A DNA stretch of 55,376 nucleotides, taken from NCBI GenBank assembly GCA_000998425.1, contig LCDG01000006.1, positions 1 through 55,376 on the forward strand, read 5' to 3'. Made by a program: the position numbers and the translations under genes. Of this stretch, positions 18,268-25,255 are shown one piece after another (within the stretch, counting starts at the first letter, position 1; each line of letters opens with the position of its first letter). The notes under the pieces are model-generated. The model worked only from the letters and a program-made list of their open reading frames with translations, was not told the origin of the DNA and made no database searches. This stretch comes from Candidatus Nomurabacteria bacterium GW2011_GWC2_42_20. GTDB taxonomy: Bacteria; Patescibacteriota; Minisyncoccia; Phycocordibacterales; UBA1550.

Positions 18268-18434
18268 AACATCTATTTTACCATAGATAAAGAAATGCAA
18301 GTAGTTCGGCTACGCTGGTAGGCCCATGGTATTAATTTGCTAATTCAGCACCGCCAATCTGGCTCGATCCTGCGTACACGCGGTGCAAGCCAAAATAAAA
18401 AACACACCACGATGGTGCACGCCTTTTGTTTTGA

Positions 18435-18449
18435 TGCTCCGCGGGTAGG
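18435..18449. repeat. att core, distal copy (duplicated tRNA-Asn 3' end)
   Basis: tgctccgcgggtagg identical to 25182-25196. Confidence 0.92.
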
Positions 18450-18668
18450 CCCAAGGCATGAACTTGCTAGTTTAGGATCGCCCCTTCGGGTCGACACTAT
18501 CTTAGACTCAAAGAAACAAAAAAGCCCCAACGCATTAGCGTCAGGGACTATTTTGTTTCTGGCTCACTTTAGTCGACGACTTTAGAACTGTTAATTGGTT
18601 GGAAGAGTATCCGTTCCCAGAAACAGATTTAAGGGAATTAAAAGAATTACTAATAGCCTAACGTATTT

Positions 18669-19256
18669 TTATGCTTTTACTCCAGCTCGTGCGGGGAACT
18701 CATATATAAATTTCAAAAGCATTTCTAGGAAGGTCATTATCTCCTCTGCATCTTCTTTTTTCTTAATGACTATTTCATGATTTGCTTCGTTTCCGTGAGA
18801 ACGAATTTTATCAACCCATTCTTTGCTGTTAGGCGGAGCATAGTGGTTGTCTACAAGATAATTAACATACTCAAGGAACGACAACCCTTCCTTTGCGCCC
18901 TGAGCAACACCAATGTGCATCAAAAGTTTTCTTCCGGTTAACACAGCAGAGGAGTATGCTCCATGACTTGTCGATTCTCTAATTTCTGACCAAATAGTCT
19001 CTATTTCAGTTGGCAAGTTTTTCACAACGTTTCCCAATGAGACTCCTGGAACTTGAGTACCAGTTTCGAGATCAAAAAAAGTCGGACGTTTACAAAATGG
19101 GCATATTTGAATAAGGCCATCGATAGCCCCATTGTCATTTCTTTGATGAAACCAGCCTTTTTCCGAACCGATATCTTTCCCGCAAGCCGAATAACCACAT
19201 GTGTAGTTTTTTGCTGTCATTTCTACTACGTTCTGCCAATTTTTTTGTGCCTGCAT
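18669..19256 (-). CDS. DUF4145-domain protein (HEPN-like) with N-terminal zinc ribbon
   Basis: CGYSAC...CPFC; SAVLTGRKLLM...IRSHGNEANH...FLEMLLKFIYEFP. Confidence 0.8.
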   Translation of the reverse strand: MQAQKNWQNVVEMTAKNYTCGYSACGKDIGSEKGWFHQRNDNGAIDGLIQICPFCKRPTFFDLETGTQVPGVSLGNVVKNLPTEIETIWSEIRESTSHGAYSSAVLTGRKLLMHIGVAQGAKEGLSFLEYVNYLVDNHYAPPNSKEWVDKIRSHGNEANHEIVIKKKEDAEEIMTFLEMLLKFIYEFPARAGVKA

Positions 19257-19319
19257 TTCTTACTTATACCACAGAATATAGTGTTTTGGAATTAAGGGGT
19301 TTAGGTGTAGTGTGAAAAT

Positions 19320-19742
19320 ATGGACCCCCAAAATACACGCCCTTGGTATCAAAAGAAGCGATACCTGATCCCGGTTGGAGTAGTTGTCTTGATGACCTTG
19401 TCAGATGGCAGTAATACACCACAGAATCAGCCTACACAAGGGGTAACTCCTGCGACATACCAAACAGAGGTGCATGCGAATACGACCTCGCAAAGTCCAC
19501 AACCGCCTGCTTCTTCCGAAAGTATTACGCAGAAAAGCGTCGTTCCGTCTACGTATACTAGCCCAGGGTTATCAAATGATAATTACTATACAAACAGCGC
19601 GGGGAACGAAGTACATTCTCCCGCTTATTCAAATACAGTTCCAGATGGAGCTTCTGCTCAGTGTCGTGATGGCACGTACAGTTTTAGTCAGTCACGGCGT
19701 GGCACTTGCTCGCATCATGGTGGTGTCTCTGTGTGGTTATAG
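19320..19742 (+). CDS. DUF3761-domain surface protein
   Basis: PWYQKK + hydrophobic anchor, P/T/S-rich linker, ASAQCRDGTYSFSQSRRGTCSHHGGV. Confidence 0.85.
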   Translation: MDPQNTRPWYQKKRYLIPVGVVVLMTLSDGSNTPQNQPTQGVTPATYQTEVHANTTSQSPQPPASSESITQKSVVPSTYTSPGLSNDNYYTNSAGNEVHSPAYSNTVPDGASAQCRDGTYSFSQSRRGTCSHHGGVSVWL

Positions 19743-19747
19743 TTAAA

Positions 19748-20368
19748 CTATTCTTTCTGGTCATCTGGTAATCCTATTCGAGAAAGATAATTTGAAAATC
19801 TTTGAGATAGGCGCTCCCTATATAATTCACGTAAAGACCCAAGATAGGACTTGTGATAGTTCATCACAAGTGCCTCTAGTGGAATGGTATGAAAACGTTT
19901 AAAATCGATGATCATTTCGGGGAAAATTCGAGACGCATCATCTCCAAAGGCACTGAGATAGTGATATCTATGGTATCTTTCATTTAGAATTAGATGTTTA
20001 AGGGCGCTGGCTTGTCCCTTTTTCCCGTCAAAGTCGTTCATTTTTCTTTCCTCAATATGTTGACCCTCTAAAAACTTTTCATGAGGATATGCTGGGCAGA
20101 CAAGAATTGTATCTAATATCTTATCATCACTTTTTTTAGACAGAGCTTCATCTGTCCCTATTGCATCCAGCTGCAAGTTCTTCTTTAGTTGGTTATAGTG
20201 TTGAGAAAGATCACATGCCTGTGTTAAAACAACTGCGTATGGGAATGGGAACTGAATGAGAAGATCGCCATCATCTGAAGGTATCTTATACGAAAAAGAG
20301 AGGTCTCGAAAAATGTCACCTTGGCTAATCTCTGTATTTTTTGACTGAATGTAATGTTGAGATTCCAT
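19748..20368 (-). CDS. Hypothetical protein with MazF/PemK-like motif pattern (candidate toxin)
   Basis: QGDIF...AVVLTQACDL...ILVCP...IIDFKRFHTIP...YLGSL...RLSQRFSNYLSRIGLP; ATG at 20368 (TTG 20395 alternative); fold assignment is inference. Confidence 0.5.
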   Translation of the reverse strand: MESQHYIQSKNTEISQGDIFRDLSFSYKIPSDDGDLLIQFPFPYAVVLTQACDLSQHYNQLKKNLQLDAIGTDEALSKKSDDKILDTILVCPAYPHEKFLEGQHIEERKMNDFDGKKGQASALKHLILNERYHRYHYLSAFGDDASRIFPEMIIDFKRFHTIPLEALVMNYHKSYLGSLRELYRERLSQRFSNYLSRIGLPDDQKE

Positions 20369-20531
20369 TTGTGGATCTAATAACCGTTCTAACAATTTTT
20401 GATGATGGATACTGAATAGAATCTACCACAAATACCTCGTTTTTGGATACAGCTTCCTCTTTATAGGAACCAGTATTGATTATAAAGCTGTCATTTTCGT
20501 AGGATACTGTATTGTTAGTTTTTTTGTTCAT
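20325..20531 (-). CDS. Small 68-aa protein (candidate antitoxin)
   Basis: ATG 1 nt after the upstream stop; 3' end overlaps the start of the next gene. Confidence 0.55.
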   Translation of the reverse strand: MNKKTNNTVSYENDSFIINTGSYKEEAVSKNEVFVVDSIQYPSSKIVRTVIRSTNGISTLHSVKKYRD

Positions 20532-20532
20532 T

Positions 20533-21303
20533 TTATTTTTTCGACATTAGCTTTCTTAGCTCTGGCTTAATACTCATTTCAAATAGGTCCTGAATGAACA
20601 CATTGTAATTTCTCACTGTTTCAGCAATAACGTCTTCAGATGACAATGGGAATCTCGAGAAGCAATCATAGTCGAGAATAAACTCCTTCCTAGTGTTTTC
20701 GTTTGGGTGGTCTTGGTTCCATATACCATATCTGAACCTTAGGTCAGCTTCGTCGTATTTAAGATCAAGTTGAGTCATTGCTCGCGAAATCATCTTCTTA
20801 GTTTTTCCTCCAAATTTTACGGCACCGAGTAGGTTCTCTGCGATATAGTCAGACCAATTAAAGTTAGTCTTTATGAAATTTAAATCAACTCGATTGATGT
20901 AGCGCAAGCCCAATCTGTTGATTGTTGTAATATCAAATGTGCCTACAAAATCACGAATAACAGTATCGCAATCTTTCATCAATTCATTTTTGTCCTTGTA
21001 ACTTCTGTCTCCATACTCGATGATTATGAAATCACCCGAAATTGTCAATTTCTTTTTTCTTGTGGCGCTGAGGAATTCCCACACTTTAACGCTACTTGTA
21101 TCATTTTGAACAGAGTTCTTTTTAAGATCAAATTCCAATTTCCCCTTGATTGCATCTTTTTGTTCTTGAAAAGGGAAATCGCCTTTTATTTTTGTTGAAA
21201 ATGAAGATAAGTTTTTCAGCTCTATTTGCTCAAAGTCGAGCCTCAAAACAACCTTATCAAGAAAATTTTGTTTATAACTTGCCTTGTTTTTCTTCGTGTT
21301 CAT
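20533..21303 (-). CDS. TIGR04255-family protein
   Basis: YKQNFLDKVVLRLDF N-terminus, hallmark INRLGLRYINRV, FILDYDCF, LFEMSI C-terminal helix. Confidence 0.8.
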   Translation of the reverse strand: MNTKKNKASYKQNFLDKVVLRLDFEQIELKNLSSFSTKIKGDFPFQEQKDAIKGKLEFDLKKNSVQNDTSSVKVWEFLSATRKKKLTISGDFIIIEYGDRSYKDKNELMKDCDTVIRDFVGTFDITTINRLGLRYINRVDLNFIKTNFNWSDYIAENLLGAVKFGGKTKKMISRAMTQLDLKYDEADLRFRYGIWNQDHPNENTRKEFILDYDCFSRFPLSSEDVIAETVRNYNVFIQDLFEMSIKPELRKLMSKK

Positions 21304-21464
21304 ATCGTTGTGACCAGTATAACAGATTTATTATATAGTAGGCATCATTCCGTTGCTGTTTGCTTGTTACTATTGCATAAAATGGTGTAAAAATCTAGGT
21401 ATAACAAAAGTTATCCTTCCTACTTACAAGGCCATGTTGCAGCGATGTCTATCGTAGAAAGTTA

Positions 21465-21752
21465 CTATAAGCTGTCGTTTTTTAGTGAATGTTCTTCCTC
21501 AAGGGCTGTGATTGCCAATTTTTGGATTTTATTTTTTTCGTTCGTAATGTGTTTAATGTGTGCCTTTTCCTTAAAATGTTGTACAGCTACAGAAAGAAAG
21601 GATACCCCAAGAATTATACCGGTCAATAAGTAAAGTACATTTTGAACATTCAAAAAAAGATTGCCAGCATAATTCCACAGAAGAAGTGAGCCACCAAAAA
21701 GGATAACTAAAACAAATACACCCTCGAAGTCTTTATTGCTGTTTTTATTCAT
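21465..21752 (-). CDS. Small two-TM membrane protein, 95 aa
   Basis: GVFVLVILFGGSLLLW and VLYLLTGIILGVSFLSVAV, followed by a charged tail; ATG at 21752. Confidence 0.65.
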   Translation of the reverse strand: MNKNSNKDFEGVFVLVILFGGSLLLWNYAGNLFLNVQNVLYLLTGIILGVSFLSVAVQHFKEKAHIKHITNEKNKIQKLAITALEEEHSLKNDSL

Positions 21753-21776
21753 AAGTTTTGCGGGATTATATATTTG

Positions 21777-21900
21777 TGGCAAACAAAAAGCCCACCACAT
21801 GGTCAACGGCCGAAACCGTTCATATCGGTTTCCCGATATGGCCCGCAAAGACAACCCCATATGATGGGTTCTTTATGTCTTTGCGGGACTTCTTTTGCCA
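21777..21900 (-). ncRNA. Putative structured cloverleaf RNA (architecture reminiscent of phage c4/CI RNAs)
   Basis: Closing stem UGGCAAA/UUUGCCA enclosing a 12-bp hairpin, CAUAUCGG-GAAA-CCGAUAUG and AACGGU-UUCG-GCCGUU; tetraloops and G-U pairs indicate the minus strand. Confidence 0.65.
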
Positions 21901-21972
21901 TGCCGCCGATTTCTCGATGGTTTAGGCTACTTCTCTATTCAGTTGTGGTAAAATTGTAGCACAGAGCTGACT

Positions 21973-22722
21973 ATGTTTAAAGGACTTAAAAACGGAAAGA
22001 AGAAGGCATATGAGATTTATGATCGAGCGTGTTGGCGTGAGGGATTCAACGATGACCTCGCTGCTTTTAGGGGGAAATACGAAATTCCGAAACTAGATGA
22101 GGAGAAACAAAATAAAAAGGATATTGAAGATTTGCTTTTGAAGTATTTTGTATCAGCGATGGACAATCTGCACTCAATGCCTGTTGCAGGTGATGCAGAC
22201 AAGGGTCCAGGGCCACAATATCTTAAGGACCGAATCATGTTTCTCAACAAATATGGCTTTCCATCCGTTTCTTTTGGGGATGCAATGGACGCAATTTTAC
22301 TCGAAGAGGTGCCTGCATACCAACCATTCGAAGTGTCTGCTGTTTCGGAAGTTACCTTGTTGGAAAATGCTGGGGCGCAACTTTGTCTACAGGTTGACGC
22401 TCTTGCAAGTAGAGATGAGACTCTCGAATATATAAGAAAAAACTGGGGTGCTATGCAAAAACTTCTTCTCGGGATGGTCCACAAAAGAAAGAGGGTCAAG
22501 ACGAGGGGCAACAGAGATCGAGACAAGCTTATCTATGATTACTATACATACTATAAAAAGCATCCCAAAGAATGGAAAGGTGCACACGCGTACCCTTTGC
22601 AAGCTGTCATTCAAAAACTTCTTGAAGATGGGTACCCTAGATTAAACATAGAAGCAATCAACCAGTCTTATCGAAGGGAAAAGAAACGCAGAGTGAAAGT
22701 CGGGCGTAAACAGACTGGTTAA
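21973..22722 (+). CDS. Hypothetical protein, basic C-terminus, possibly DNA-binding
   Basis: 249-aa ORF preceded by TGgTAAAAT (21946-21954); no family recognised. Confidence 0.6.
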   Translation: MFKGLKNGKKKAYEIYDRACWREGFNDDLAAFRGKYEIPKLDEEKQNKKDIEDLLLKYFVSAMDNLHSMPVAGDADKGPGPQYLKDRIMFLNKYGFPSVSFGDAMDAILLEEVPAYQPFEVSAVSEVTLLENAGAQLCLQVDALASRDETLEYIRKNWGAMQKLLLGMVHKRKRVKTRGNRDRDKLIYDYYTYYKKHPKEWKGAHAYPLQAVIQKLLEDGYPRLNIEAINQSYRREKKRRVKVGRKQTG

Positions 22723-22784
22723 GTGTCTCTAATTTCTCGCTTGTTTTTAAAGATACTGTGATCATACCAATCACGGTATTTTTT

Positions 22785-22958
22785 ATGTCTGAGCTGGTCA
22801 AAACAAACGAAAACATTTTAGATCGAGATATTGTCTCGTTCTTTGATTTGCTTGCTCGTTTTGATTATGAGGACAAACAAAAAGAAGGGTCGTTGTTCAA
22901 TTCTGGCTCCTCAGTCTCAGCTCCTGAGGGGTCGGAATTGGACAAAGATAATAAATAA
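22785..22958 (+). CDS. Small hypothetical protein of the mobile element
   Basis: 57 aa with helix IVSFFDLLARFDYED; stop 4 nt before the rep-like ATG. Confidence 0.5.
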   Translation: MSELVKTNENILDRDIVSFFDLLARFDYEDKQKEGSLFNSGSSVSAPEGSELDKDNK

Positions 22959-22962
22959 AATC

Positions 22963-23469
22963 ATGACAGAGCTGAAAGATGGACACTGGTTCGCAGTTGA
23001 TAATAAATTTATTGATTCTTATGCGTCTCATTTTAGCCCTGCTACAATTGCAGTATATGTTGCTATCTTGAGGTTTAGATTTGGTAGTACAGATAGGGCC
23101 CGCATCTCGCAGGATTCTTTATCTAAAAAACTGGGAATTAGCCGAGAAGCTGTTGGTAGAGTTTTAAAAACTTTAGTTGCTCATTCTCTTTTGCGGGTTG
23201 AGAAAATTAAACGGAATAACGGTACATGGTCTTACAATGAATATCTTGTAATTGATGAGAAGTACTGGCTTCCACCATGTGACCCTATATCACACGGGGT
23301 CGAATTAAGACCATGTGATATTTGTGCAAAAAACCATGAGACCTATCATCACACTAAAAAGACTAAATACAAAAAGACTAATAAATATAGGAATGATTTC
23401 CTTTTGGAAAACAGAAGAGAACTCGCTGCTGGCTTCAAAATGGGCAAAAGGAACACTGGTTATGGATAA
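22963..23469 (+). CDS. Helix-turn-helix replication-initiator-like protein
   Basis: WFAVDN...IAVYVAI...ISQDSLSKKLGISREAVGRVLKTLV...NEY winged-HTH pattern, followed by an iteron-bearing linker. Confidence 0.7.
   Translation: MTELKDGHWFAVDNKFIDSYASHFSPATIAVYVAILRFRFGSTDRARISQDSLSKKLGISREAVGRVLKTLVAHSLLRVEKIKRNNGTWSYNEYLVIDEKYWLPPCDPISHGVELRPCDICAKNHETYHHTKKTKYKKTNKYRNDFLLENRRELAAGFKMGKRNTGYG
23274..23381. repeat. Iteron-like repeats plus A-rich repeats (putative replication origin)
   Basis: accatgtga at 23274 and 23310, accatgaga at 23333; aaaaagactaa at 23356 and 23371. Confidence 0.6.
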
Positions 23470-23644
23470 ACGTAAGTGCTGGCAAAGGTTTGCATTTTGT
23501 AACATACCGTGGCATTTATCGGAGGGATGTTGTGTTAGCAAATGTTAGCTTTTCCTAGGGGGGGGTAGTTTGTTGGCAAAGGTTGACATTTTTAATGAGT
23601 GTACCGTTTTTAGAAAAGGTTATTTTAAGTTAAAATATAAACAT

Positions 23645-25195
23645 ATGAAATCTATAATTTATTGCCGTGTCTCATCTCGAGAGCAAGAAGAAACAGGATA
23701 TTCGTTGGAATCTCAGGAGAAGTTTTTGAAAGAATACGCGGATAAGCAAGCTTTTGCTATAGCAAAAGCTTATAAGGTCACCGAGTCAGCAAGTAAATGG
23801 CAAATTCGCACAACCCTAAAGGAGATGCTTGAATATGCGGAGGAAAACAATATCAATGTTATTCTCGTTGAAAAGATTGACCGCTTAACTCGTAGTCTCA
23901 AGGATGCGGCAATTGTTAATGATTGGGTTCACCAAAGAGGTGAACGAGAGGTTCATTTTACTAAAGAGAATTTTGTTCTAAGTAAAAATACCCGGTCTCA
24001 CGAAAACTTGGTTTGGGATATGAAAGTTGCCATCGCTCGTTTCTATACGAACAATCTCTCAGAAGAAGTAAGGAAGGGCCAGAAGGAAAAAATTGCACAA
24101 GGATGGCTTCCAACAAAGCCTCCACTTGGGTACAAGACGGTTGGAGAAAAAGGTCACAAGATTCATGTTGTTGATGAGGATAAAGCGCCCTTTATTAAAA
24201 AAGCATTTGAACTTTATGCAACCGGCAACTTCTCTCTTTTGTCATTGCGCGAAAAACTTTATACCGATGGCTTGCGCACGCGAGTGGGAGCAAAGCTTTC
24301 AAAGAGTCGCCTTGAGGATATTCTGAGGGACCCATTTTACTGCGGTTCTATGCGATGGAATGATGTCGTGTATCAACACGGAAGACATGAGCCCCTTGTC
24401 TCAAAGGATCTCTTTGAGAAGGTTCAGTATTCTCTAACCCGCAAAAGTGCGCCACACTATCGACGACATCTCTTTCAATTCAGCAAGATGATTAACTGTG
24501 GCGAGTGTAATGGTACCGTGAGCGCGGAAATGCAAAAAGGTTATGTGTACTATTCGTGCAAGCATGCCCGAGGATGCAATCAAAAAGGGATGACACGAGA
24601 AGAGAAAATCGAGAATGCCATTATCGGGGTATTCAAGATTTTTGAGAGCATGACGGAGGAAGAGGCTCAGGAAATTTACCGTAGAATTAGAGAGGACCAC
24701 AAAGCAGAGGCTGACTACAAGGAAAGCGCCATTAAGACCCTTAACGACCGTTACAGCTCACTACAGAGGCGTTTAGATATACTTTACGATGATCGTTTGG
24801 CAGAGAAAATAAGCCAGGAGCGCTGGCAAGGTAAACAGGATGAGATGGTACGTGAACAAACCGAGATACAGGCTCAAATCGCTAAAATTAAGCGCGAGGA
24901 GACGAAGTATTTTGAAGTGTATATAAACATTCTTGACCTAGCGCGTCGTGCTCGAGAAATTTATGAAAAGCGAACACCGGAAGAGAAACGACTTTTAATT
25001 TCGCATCTTTTTTCGAACCTCGTCTTAAAAGACAAAGAAGCTAGTTATTTATTGAAGAAACCAGTCGAGCTGTTCGCAAAAAGAGTCCAAGAGAAGATTG
25101 ACTCTCAAAAGAAGTTCGAACTCGAGAAAAGCGTTGGTAATAAAAGAAAAAACAGGGCTTTTGACCCTGCTTCTTCACCTTTGCTCCGCGGGTAG
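23645..25195 (+). CDS. Large serine recombinase (resolvase + recombinase + zinc ribbon + coiled coil)
   Basis: YCRVSSREQ catalytic Ser, EKIDRLTR, PPLGY, CGECNG...YYSC; ATG at 23645; stop codon lies in the att core. Confidence 0.95.
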   Translation: MKSIIYCRVSSREQEETGYSLESQEKFLKEYADKQAFAIAKAYKVTESASKWQIRTTLKEMLEYAEENNINVILVEKIDRLTRSLKDAAIVNDWVHQRGEREVHFTKENFVLSKNTRSHENLVWDMKVAIARFYTNNLSEEVRKGQKEKIAQGWLPTKPPLGYKTVGEKGHKIHVVDEDKAPFIKKAFELYATGNFSLLSLREKLYTDGLRTRVGAKLSKSRLEDILRDPFYCGSMRWNDVVYQHGRHEPLVSKDLFEKVQYSLTRKSAPHYRRHLFQFSKMINCGECNGTVSAEMQKGYVYYSCKHARGCNQKGMTREEKIENAIIGVFKIFESMTEEEAQEIYRRIREDHKAEADYKESAIKTLNDRYSSLQRRLDILYDDRLAEKISQERWQGKQDEMVREQTEIQAQIAKIKREETKYFEVYINILDLARRAREIYEKRTPEEKRLLISHLFSNLVLKDKEASYLLKKPVELFAKRVQEKIDSQKKFELEKSVGNKRKNRAFDPASSPLLRG

Positions 25196-25255
25196 GGATC
25201 GAACCTACGACCAAGCGATTAACAGTCGCTTGCTCTACCACTGAGCTACCGCGGA
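25184..25255 (-). tRNA. tRNA-Asn (GTT), CCA not encoded
   Basis: TCCGCGGTAGCTCAGTGGTAGAGCAAGCGACTGTTAATCGCTTGGTCGTAGGTTCGATCCCTACCCGCGGAG folds as a cloverleaf. Confidence 0.97.

Follow-up and report, generated by a model that had tools for sequence, protein, structure and literature searches.

A conserved three-gene cassette of a TIGR04255 protein, a small variable peptide and a MazF-shaped protein: a candidate toxin-antitoxin-type module on a small integrative element of Candidatus Nomurabacteria

A 55,376-nucleotide contig of Candidatus Nomurabacteria bacterium GW2011_GWC2_42_20 (LCDG01000006.1, positions 1 to 55,376 of the forward strand; this whole stretch is referred to as the window) carries between positions 19748 and 21303 a cassette of three coupled minus-strand open reading frames (ORFs), g1, g2 and g3. 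We interpret the cassette as one co-inherited module of the toxin-antitoxin or abortive-infection type that travels as cargo of a small integrative element, an interpretation to which we give about even chances. It draws on the toxin-type fold predicted for g3, on a sister cassette that holds a PemK toxin, on the coupled small gene and on a sporadic, mobile distribution. The cassette is widespread and unstudied and probably represents a new form of toxin-antitoxin or anti-virus module, i.e. a tripartite toxin-type module of a known class with new component families. Its genes are the following:

20533..21303, minus strand: g1, TIGR04255 protein of 256 amino acids (aa), ATG start, first gene of the cassette
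20325..20531, minus strand: g2, 68-aa peptide, ATG start, middle gene
19748..20368, minus strand: g3, 206-aa protein, ATG at 20368 with a TTG at 20395 also open, presumed effector or toxin

On a letter-by-letter reading of the minus strand, the g1 stop codon TAA is followed by one base and then by the ATG of g2, and g2 overlaps g3 by 44 nt, so that the coordinates and spacings given in an initial annotation of this DNA were exact. The 1-nt gap followed by the overlap indicates that the three genes are translationally coupled. For g3 the ATG at 20368 is more likely to be the start than the TTG at 20395, because the resulting 206-aa form equals the database protein P0001 and matches the N-termini of the homologues. 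A promoter and terminator scan of 19200-22100 returned counts no higher than in shuffled sequences. DNA contigs from four sequencing runs were also compared, and in the runs containing the cassette it was covered without differences.

Conservation of the gene order was assessed in loci fetched through g3 alone, namely the best 80 of 152 confirmed g3 relatives obtained with g3 patterns at one genome per species. By record title these comprise 25 archaeal and 55 bacterial loci, including 13 from the candidate phyla radiation (CPR; Patescibacteria). A tblastn search with g1 of the window placed a g1 homologue directly upstream and on the same strand in 78 of the 80, and a same-strand ORF of 47-115 aa fills the gap between g1 and g3 in 76 of these 78. 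Because the order recurs in 78 of 80 loci that were retrieved with g3 only, it lies far beyond chance; the partnership of g1 and g3 is obligate, and the three-gene order supposed in the initial annotation is indeed conserved. The gap measures about 150-250 nt in most loci, 367 nt in L015 and 509 nt in L056; no middle ORF was found in L019 and L069, and L034, L055 and L079 are among the doubtful cases. In the remaining two loci a profile search detected a C-terminal remnant of g1: L036 ends at a contig edge and L078 is truncated. At L078 (4690-5531, plus strand) all that lies before an intact g3 is a stretch coding for the final ~30 residues of g1 (E 3.6e-6), so that this locus represents a copy that has decayed or been rearranged, with g3 retained although g1 is incomplete.

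In the window's phylum the TIGR04255 profile scored over its cut-off in 5 of 401 sampled genomes, none of them from the window's own order, and reached E up to 1e-3 in 7; the corresponding counts over the cut-off were 32 of 401 in Pseudomonadota, the phylum of Duganella, and 0 of 14 in control genomes. Cultivated carriers of the cassette include Duganella flavida and Methylocystis iwaonis; in the latter it lies on a plasmid, where it comes after a recombinase gene and another that carries the annotation 'abortive infection family protein'. The distribution is sporadic and the cassette mobile, and sporadic spread together with a fast-evolving middle gene is typical of conflict systems.

The middle gene g2 has no match in Pfam, NCBIfam, PADLOC or PHROGs. 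In the 78 loci with an upstream g1, the sense frame is wholly open across the central gap in 62 and the antisense frame in 18, while mononucleotide shuffles gave a mean of 4.3 and a maximum of 9 open frames; the 16 loci without an open sense frame are mostly ones where the tested stretch ran into g3. The ratio of nonsynonymous to synonymous substitution rates (dN/dS) of the small ORF was 0.15-0.55 in 14 of 15 pairs of related loci chosen by eye, i.e. below 0.6, and 1.39 in the pair L044/L053. An equivalent 70-aa ORF on the Methylocystis iwaonis plasmid is annotated by the Prokaryotic Genome Annotation Pipeline (PGAP). Because of the open frames, the low dN/dS and the PGAP annotation, the middle gene is real, coding and under purifying selection, in keeping with the initial annotation, which had taken the 68-aa ORF for a gene.

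In g2 itself a variable, low-complexity N-terminal part is followed by a C-terminal part with a basic/hydrophobic strand motif (QYPSSKIVRTVIRS...HSVKKYRD). The same division is seen among g2-type peptides at large: the N-terminal two-thirds vary freely and consist to 37% of Ser, Thr, Asn, Gln, Gly and Pro, only the C-terminal ~20 residues are conserved, and cysteine makes up 0.3% of all residues, the variable part being hydrophilic. The last 20 residues contain 26% Lys plus Arg, 12% Asp plus Glu and 29% hydrophobic residues. They fall into a few motif classes, among them ...Y..RK.....YVxKQD, ...VEYEIKD and ...KPRRVIIKAKISHD; the first of these accommodates g2 of the window (F...QYPSSKIVRTVIRS), which has a 15-residue tail ending in KKYRD. 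The alignment of this first class (A4) has 23 rows that were picked for looking alike, and its conservation is therefore partly a product of selection. A MazE/PemI-type antitoxin, which combines an N-terminal dimerization and DNA-binding domain (AbrB/SpoVT, RHH or similar) with an acidic toxin-binding tail, was considered for g2 by its features and rejected, given the absence of a family match, the unconserved N-terminus and the basic tail. Complex predictions for g1 and g3 with g2 as the partner gave ipSAE values of 0.01 and 0.00, the fold of the partner itself being uncertain.

For g3 no match was found in Pfam, NCBIfam, PADLOC or PHROGs (Pfam and PADLOC at E up to 1). A word-indexed search with its sequence yielded 419 candidates, of which 281 are relatives at E up to 1e-3; none of the 120 relatives listed has a Pfam domain, and any names given read 'hypothetical'. 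A profile of 30 relatives was searched against 1.84 billion representatives; counted in clusters at 50% identity, it retrieved 2358 with E up to 1e-3, of which 1105 remain at 1e-10 and 332 at 1e-30, which points to a large, unnamed family. In the alignment of the 30 sequences the invariant positions are Q16, D18, Q50, C52, D53, D82, G102, R134, H136, D155-F156-K157, E185, Q189-R190-F191 and R197-P201, and H104, K83 and P92 are nearly invariant.

The AlphaFold2 (AF2) model of g3 reached a predicted local distance difference test score (pLDDT) of 90.2 and a predicted template modeling score (pTM) of 0.86. All 28 PDB matches listed by Foldseek (down to rank 50, with additional chains of an entry already listed not counted) are MazF, MoxT, YdcE (EndoA), Kid or CcdB, with probabilities of 0.90-1.00 and template modeling (TM) scores, normalized by target, of 0.46-0.66; a ToxN/AbiQ fold, which was also considered, is absent among the matches listed. 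As modeled, g3 would thus consist of a MazF/Kid/CcdB-type SH3-like barrel, helices inserted after strands 2 and 3 (H51-77 and H96-128) and a long, strongly conserved C-terminal helix. The initial annotation had read the motif order GDI, AVVL, IxVCP, IIDxxxxxTI, YLGxL and terminal helix from the sequence; all of these are present (QGDI, YAVVLTQ, ILVCPAY, IIDFKRFHTIP and SYLGSL), and they fall on predicted strands and on the terminal helix in MazF order. The catalytic residues of MazF are an arginine in the β1-β2 loop and a threonine or serine after β3. In g3 the sequence that precedes AVVL is FPFPY, with no catalytic arginine, as had been remarked from the sequence, and β3 ends in VCPAY. The protein therefore seems to be MazF-shaped yet outside the MazF family, and cannot, judging from these residues, use the catalytic residues of MazF. 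What the initial annotation called MazF/PemK-like accordingly holds for the fold with its insertions, as modeled by AF2 and matched by Foldseek, and does not hold for membership by sequence or for the residues of the catalytic loop, which are unconserved.

Some further observations concern the form in which g3 occurs. A few database forms of 245-269 aa have N-terminal extensions, most of which look like upstream mis-starts. One of the relatives (P0237, 245 aa) has an in-frame extension before the QGD strand that ends in the g2-like sequence ARLIRHFKLSK; by its sequence it would be either a natural g2-g3 fusion or a frameshifted assembly. One protein atlas cluster of g3 relatives includes members labeled Uroviricota.

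The first gene, g1, is clearly a TIGR04255 family member by its match to the NCBIfam profile TIGR04255.1 (101.5 bits with the cut-off at 30, E 6.2e-29), which covers positions 2-251 of the 252 in the profile, and the sequence RLGLRYIN, which the initial annotation took for the hallmark of the family, is the most conserved strand in the alignment. No match to g1 was found in Pfam, PADLOC or PHROGs (Pfam and PADLOC at E up to 1). The alignment and the model were built from 39 of 70 full-length homologues from the loci together with the copy of the window. Its most conserved residues lie mainly in the second repeat of the model (R130, G132, L133, R134, Y135, N137, G193, N196, P200, F208, L210, D211, D213, F241, E242 and R250). 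The AF2 model (pLDDT 93.1, pTM 0.88) shows the succession S1-H1-S2-S3-S4-S5-H2 of strands and helices twice, and its top Foldseek matches in the PDB are TATA-binding proteins (TBPs; E from 1.7e-4, probability up to 1.00), with AdoMetDC and RepDE ranking below them. Against the viral library BFVD the best match is an unnamed protein (E 1.6e-7, TM 0.45/0.55), followed by several viral TBPs. A duplicated TBP-like alpha/beta fold is on this modeling likely, without being settled. The SecB-like or PsbP/Mog1-like fold proposed for g1 in the initial annotation was not recovered, as neither occurs among the PDB matches listed (ranks 1-49). A PDB sequence-profile search with the g1 alignment gave 0 matches at E up to 1. 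In the protein atlas, the g1 model is matched over its whole length (TM 0.79 by query) by a 91-member cluster of 436 aa whose proteins have AAA_17 (99%) and AAA_18 (81%) domains; the two members with a known phylum are both Bacteroidota. By its model this cluster may represent a TIGR04255-like domain fused to a P-loop kinase-like domain.

Loci found through the TIGR04255 profile show with what other genes this family is combined. The four other over-cut-off loci of the window's phylum divide into two with a small ORF and g3 (L082, L085) and two without (L083, L084), and in 30 Pseudomonadota loci the g3 profile was strong solely in the seed L089 and weak in L097 and L101. The remaining arrangements were grouped into alternative classes, which derive from mechanical ORF chains downstream of TIGR04255 and have small numbers; the genes usually lie within a few bases or overlap:

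class a, L097, L101, L106, L109 and L112: TIGR04255, a 108-129-aa protein and a 190-208-aa 'QGD...SNxCD' protein
class b, L091, L099, L104, L107 and L108: a ~165-aa protein and a 93-149-aa protein
class c, L092, L093 and L096: a ~229-aa protein after a gap
class d, L100, L110 and L114: a helix-turn-helix (HTH)-like protein and a ~275-aa protein
class e, L083 (2-1437, plus strand) and L084 (630-2226, minus strand): a 161-187-aa protein and a ~125-aa protein
class f, L098 (1483-2858, plus strand): TIGR04255, a 2-nt gap, a 95-aa ORF and an overlapping PemK

The third gene of class a, compared by hhalign for six Pseudomonadota loci, is a distant relative of g3 (probability 85.8%, E 5.4e-6); for L111, which also belongs here, only the long third-gene ORF of 232 aa is listed. 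The 'type D' third genes (L100, L105, L110 and L114) were tried as g3 relatives and rejected, with hhalign probabilities of 8.5% and 1.0% and only a VVxSQxCD-like motif in common. The downstream pair in L091 weakly matches, gene by gene, the PADLOC models PDC-M32A (first gene) and PDC-M32B (second gene), at E 0.015 and 0.022, and the ~125-aa protein of L084 is weakly HEPN-like (PF05168, E 0.0058, below the cut-off). In L098, from a Pseudomonadota genome, the third gene is a canonical PemK/MazF toxin (PF02452, E 1.1e-18); by its sequence, this locus independently puts a bona fide MazF-family toxin in the position of g3. Taken together, the sequences suggest a pattern in which the first gene is conserved, the middle one varies and the third can be exchanged, a combination that is typical of conflict systems, and suggest that TIGR04255 proteins are modular accessories or sensors with swappable effectors.

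The cassette resembles several known systems in part. Shared with MazF, PemK, Kid and CcdB are the SH3-like barrel and terminal helix predicted for g3, the small coupled gene just upstream and the true PemK in g3's position in the sister cassette L098; the differences are that g3 is about twice the size, has helical insertions and other invariant residues and lacks a sequence match, that g2 has neither a DNA-binding fold nor the acidic tail of MazE, PemI and Kis, its tail being basic, and that the cassette has an obligate third gene, g1. With the toxin-antitoxin-chaperone (TAC) systems, such as HigBA-SecB of M. tuberculosis and CmdTAC, it has in common its make-up of three genes, which comprise a putative toxin, a short middle protein of low structure whose C-terminal element is conserved, and an accessory protein that recurs in cassettes with different toxins. 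It differs from them in that its accessory protein is predicted to be TBP-like and not SecB-like, in that g2 has no recognizable chaperone-addiction element and in its gene order of accessory, small protein and toxin.

Two further precedents come from toxin and defense proteins. The TBP1 domain of RnlA is needed for substrate binding by its HEPN RNase (PMC8266594), and RnlA and LsoA, the toxins of the anti-phage toxin-antitoxin systems RnlAB and LsoAB, resemble the cassette in pairing TBP-like domains with a metal-independent RNase-type toxin fold; in RnlA these domains are fused to HEPN, whereas in the window the predicted TBP-like protein is separate and stands beside a MazF-fold protein, and the PDB profile search detected no sequence relation of RnlA to g1. 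In type II Gabija (Liu-DS1), GajC has a MazF-like domain split by a helical insertion, is required for defense and is the effector of a validated anti-phage system (PMC13069673). As described there, GajC works with the UvrD-type helicase GajB, which has no counterpart in the cassette, and requires its β1-β2 loop, which is variable in the g3 family. The PADLOC defense candidate PDC-M32 resembles the cassette through the weak matches in the sister cassette L091, and differs in that g1, g2 and g3 of the window match no PADLOC model at E up to 1. As the initial annotation had surmised, the cassette is uncatalogued: PADLOC-DB v2.0.0 (2023), Pfam and PHROGs gave no match and NCBIfam holds the bare TIGR04255 name. 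In the literature searched, which did not extend to paper supplements, we found no description of the cassette, nor the term TIGR04255.

From these likenesses we infer the roles of toxin, antitoxin and chaperone or sensor, as well as phage defense, by analogy. In the proposed mechanism g3 would be a growth-arresting effector that most likely acts on nucleic acid and relies on its own invariant residues in place of the Arg and Thr of MazF; an RNA nuclease is the first guess. The peptide g2 would be a labile, mostly disordered and fast-evolving neutralizer, whose C-terminal strand motif likely docks on g3 and blocks its activity, in the manner of the MazE, Kis and CcdA tails. The probably TBP-like g1 would act as third component, either as a sensor of nucleic acid or ligand or as a presenter of substrate, comparable to RnlA, or else as a stabilizer of g2. 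Loss or titration of g2, upon phage infection or loss of the element, would then free g3 and growth would stop. Toxicity, binding partners, substrate and trigger are in this scheme what we infer; RnlA, GajC and the TAC systems serve as its precedents.

The carrier of the cassette is an element of ~6.76 kb bounded by an exact 15-nt direct repeat. The genome that contains it measures 679 kb in 17 contigs, is 92.6% complete and has one TIGR04255 copy; sampled genomes of the window's phylum range from 0.5 to 1.2 Mb, and the genome fits a CPR bacterium. A replication-initiator-like winged helix-turn-helix (wHTH) protein is also encoded on the element, together with the following features in or at it:

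18435..18449: distal repeat TGCTCCGCGGGTAGG, 15-nt copy at one end of the integrated element
18669-19256, minus strand: DUF4145 protein (PF13643 E 2.7e-8; phrog_1305 E 5.5e-20; weak PD-T7-4 match, E 3.4e-4)
19320-19742, plus strand: DUF3761 protein (E 2.8e-24), N-terminal half of low complexity, flanked by the DUF4145 gene and g3, which are both on the other strand
21805-21928, minus strand: LOOT RNA (Rfam RF03000), full-length, 83.5 bits, E 4e-15, ~500 nt upstream of g1
23570..25195, plus strand: large serine recombinase (Resolvase E 1.4e-24, Recombinase 3.8e-16, Zn_ribbon_recom 1.8e-7)
25183..25255, minus strand: tRNA-Asn (GTT), the 3' end of which carries the other repeat copy (25182-25196)

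With the repeat at the 3' end of tRNA-Asn and the recombinase inside, the element is tRNA-integrated and the cassette its cargo, as had been read from the sequence at the outset. A degenerate second copy of the repeat and its flank lies 127 nt away (18308-18345 versus 18435-18472, 38 nt similar), and by its sequence resembles a scar left when an element integrated at this tRNA-Asn site on a previous occasion. A contig joint in run X5 (18477-25192, skipping 6714 bases) was considered as an empty site and rejected, because its short side has 21 letters and it lies off the repeat edges. The DUF4145 gene is a second defense-flavored cargo of the element.

Related serine recombinases are found 1-2 kb from the cassette in L004, L006, L012, L027 and L080, and a tRNA lies within the locus in L004, L006, L012 and L080, L027 being outside the tRNA scan. 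Of the 15 CPR loci scanned, 3 have a LOOT RNA close to the cassette, namely L004 (5800-5924, minus strand), L005 (2638-2761, minus strand) and L006 (3814-3931, minus strand), and in L004 and L006 a tRNA and one of the related serine recombinases accompany it. The genome of the window has two copies, the other one at G000:C7:11299-11417 (plus strand). Summed contig depth rises 3-6-fold over the LOOT bin (21755-22031) in runs X8, X10 and X11, and LOOT RNA is therefore shared by other genomes in these samples. Small integrative elements with a serine recombinase may, in CPR bacteria, include LOOT RNA as one of their components.

Genes around the cassette were scanned for the 141 nearest of 273 neighboring ORFs, the 132 second-nearest being left out. 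Among them Pfam recognized Phage_integrase (4), Resolvase (2), DDE transposase (2), EcoRI (1) and Type ISP (1), and PADLOC recognized mad2 (3) with single matches to restriction, PDC-S14/S18, SoFic, CapP and DpdF models.

Several of the results weigh against a toxin-antitoxin or abortive-infection module. Starting with g3, its Foldseek E-values are modest (3.4e-3 to 6e-2) and its TM scores by query are 0.31-0.38, which are low because the MazF core makes up about half of the protein. No sequence link to PemK (PF02452) was seen, in that Pfam, searched to E 1, returned no family, and an hhalign comparison between the g3 profile and the canonical PemK of L098 gave a probability of 0.1%; a PDB sequence-profile search with the g3 alignment found no MazF and nothing relevant. 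The β1-β2 loop varies in length and sequence, with no conserved residue from I19 to Q50, and homology therefore implies no nuclease activity for g3. This loop is the active-site loop of MazF according to the GajC report (PMC13069673). The match of g1 to TBPs has TM scores of just 0.2-0.3 and a root-mean-square deviation of about 12 Å. As for g2, no DNA-binding domain was matched, unlike in MazE-type antitoxins, and its conserved tail is basic, not acidic. Fusions that would join the proteins physically were not found, with one weak match for g3 among 6483 long candidates and none for g1 among 8000, both of which are weak evidence. A search of 50,697 phage records at E up to 1e-3 detected no g3, and just 1 of 72,556 plasmids has it. 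Finally, many nearest neighbors are housekeeping singletons, e.g. ribosomal protein L3, LysRS and NadA, and the defense and mobile genes among the neighbors are suggestive only, because the scan lacked a control for background and did not yield the number of members that have at least one defense match.

The role of the cassette could be wider or narrower than the one proposed. In its widest form, TIGR04255 proteins would be TBP-like sensors of nucleic acid or of a small ligand that define a large and hitherto unrecognized modular class of three-gene conflict systems of bacteria and archaea, in which a fast-evolving middle protein links the sensor with growth-arresting effectors that can be exchanged (canonical PemK, HEPN-like and PDC-M32-like proteins and the new family with a MazF fold) and the MazF-fold effector has a new Asp/Cys/His/Arg/Lys active site; we hold this wider claim tentatively and with some doubt. 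Narrower is a role in pure addiction, where toxin, labile neutralizer and helper stabilize carrier elements or plasmids by post-segregational killing and do not serve in phage defense. An element of 6.76 kb that holds little beyond a recombinase, the replication-initiator-like wHTH protein and cargo would suit such a role, as would the related recombinases within 1-2 kb in five CPR loci, four of them with a tRNA, and the recombinase beside the cassette on the Methylocystis plasmid. Many copies, however, lie amid ordinary chromosomal genes with no mobile-element gene as the nearest neighbor, and restriction and other defense models occur among the neighbors; addiction and defense are compatible roles, and we regard addiction to the exclusion of defense as unlikely.

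A cassette without any toxin would also account for part of the data. The MazF fold of g3 would then serve in binding or processing nucleic acid, alongside the TBP-like binder g1 and a small adaptor, in the regulation or maintenance of mobile DNA, for example in the control of transcription, replication or RNA processing. The lack of MazF catalytic loop residues in g3, its different invariant set and its long conserved C-terminal helix are in line with this, TBP-like folds typically bind nucleic acid (PMC8266594), and the LOOT RNA lies 500 nt upstream on the same strand and recurs near the cassette in L004, L005 and L006. The RNA is near 3 of 15 loci in a scan that covered CPR loci only, however, and because its position and strand vary relative to the cassette, it tracks the carrier element and not the cassette. 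A canonical PemK at the position of g3 in sister cassettes, together with the sporadic distribution and the fast-evolving middle gene that are typical of conflict systems, makes a non-toxin role quite improbable in our judgment. Least probable by far is that g2 is a precursor peptide that is processed or modified by g1, g3 or both through a protease- or transferase-like Cys/His/Asp site. A small hypervariable peptide gene between two conserved genes and the invariant C52, D53 and H136 of g3, with the nearly invariant H104, would be expected of such a pathway, but no transporter, immunity gene or known enzyme family for ribosomally synthesized and post-translationally modified peptides (RiPPs) is present in the cassette or recurs among its neighbors, the variable part of the peptide is low-complexity, hydrophilic and nearly free of cysteine, and the fold of g3 is that of MazF toxins.

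If the toxin-antitoxin or abortive-infection interpretation is correct, it would provide a function for TIGR04255, which is present in 32 of 401 Pseudomonadota genomes and in 5 of 401 genomes of the window's phylum, and for a MazF-fold family that has no name and comprises over 2000 clusters at 50% identity. Toxin-type modules would also gain a tripartite architecture in which a TBP-like protein takes the accessory place of SecB and is common to cassettes with different effectors, a modularity of the kind that has earlier led to new defense systems. The cassette also shows that CPR bacteria, with genomes of just 0.7 Mb, take up modules of this kind by way of tRNA-integrating elements of very small size.

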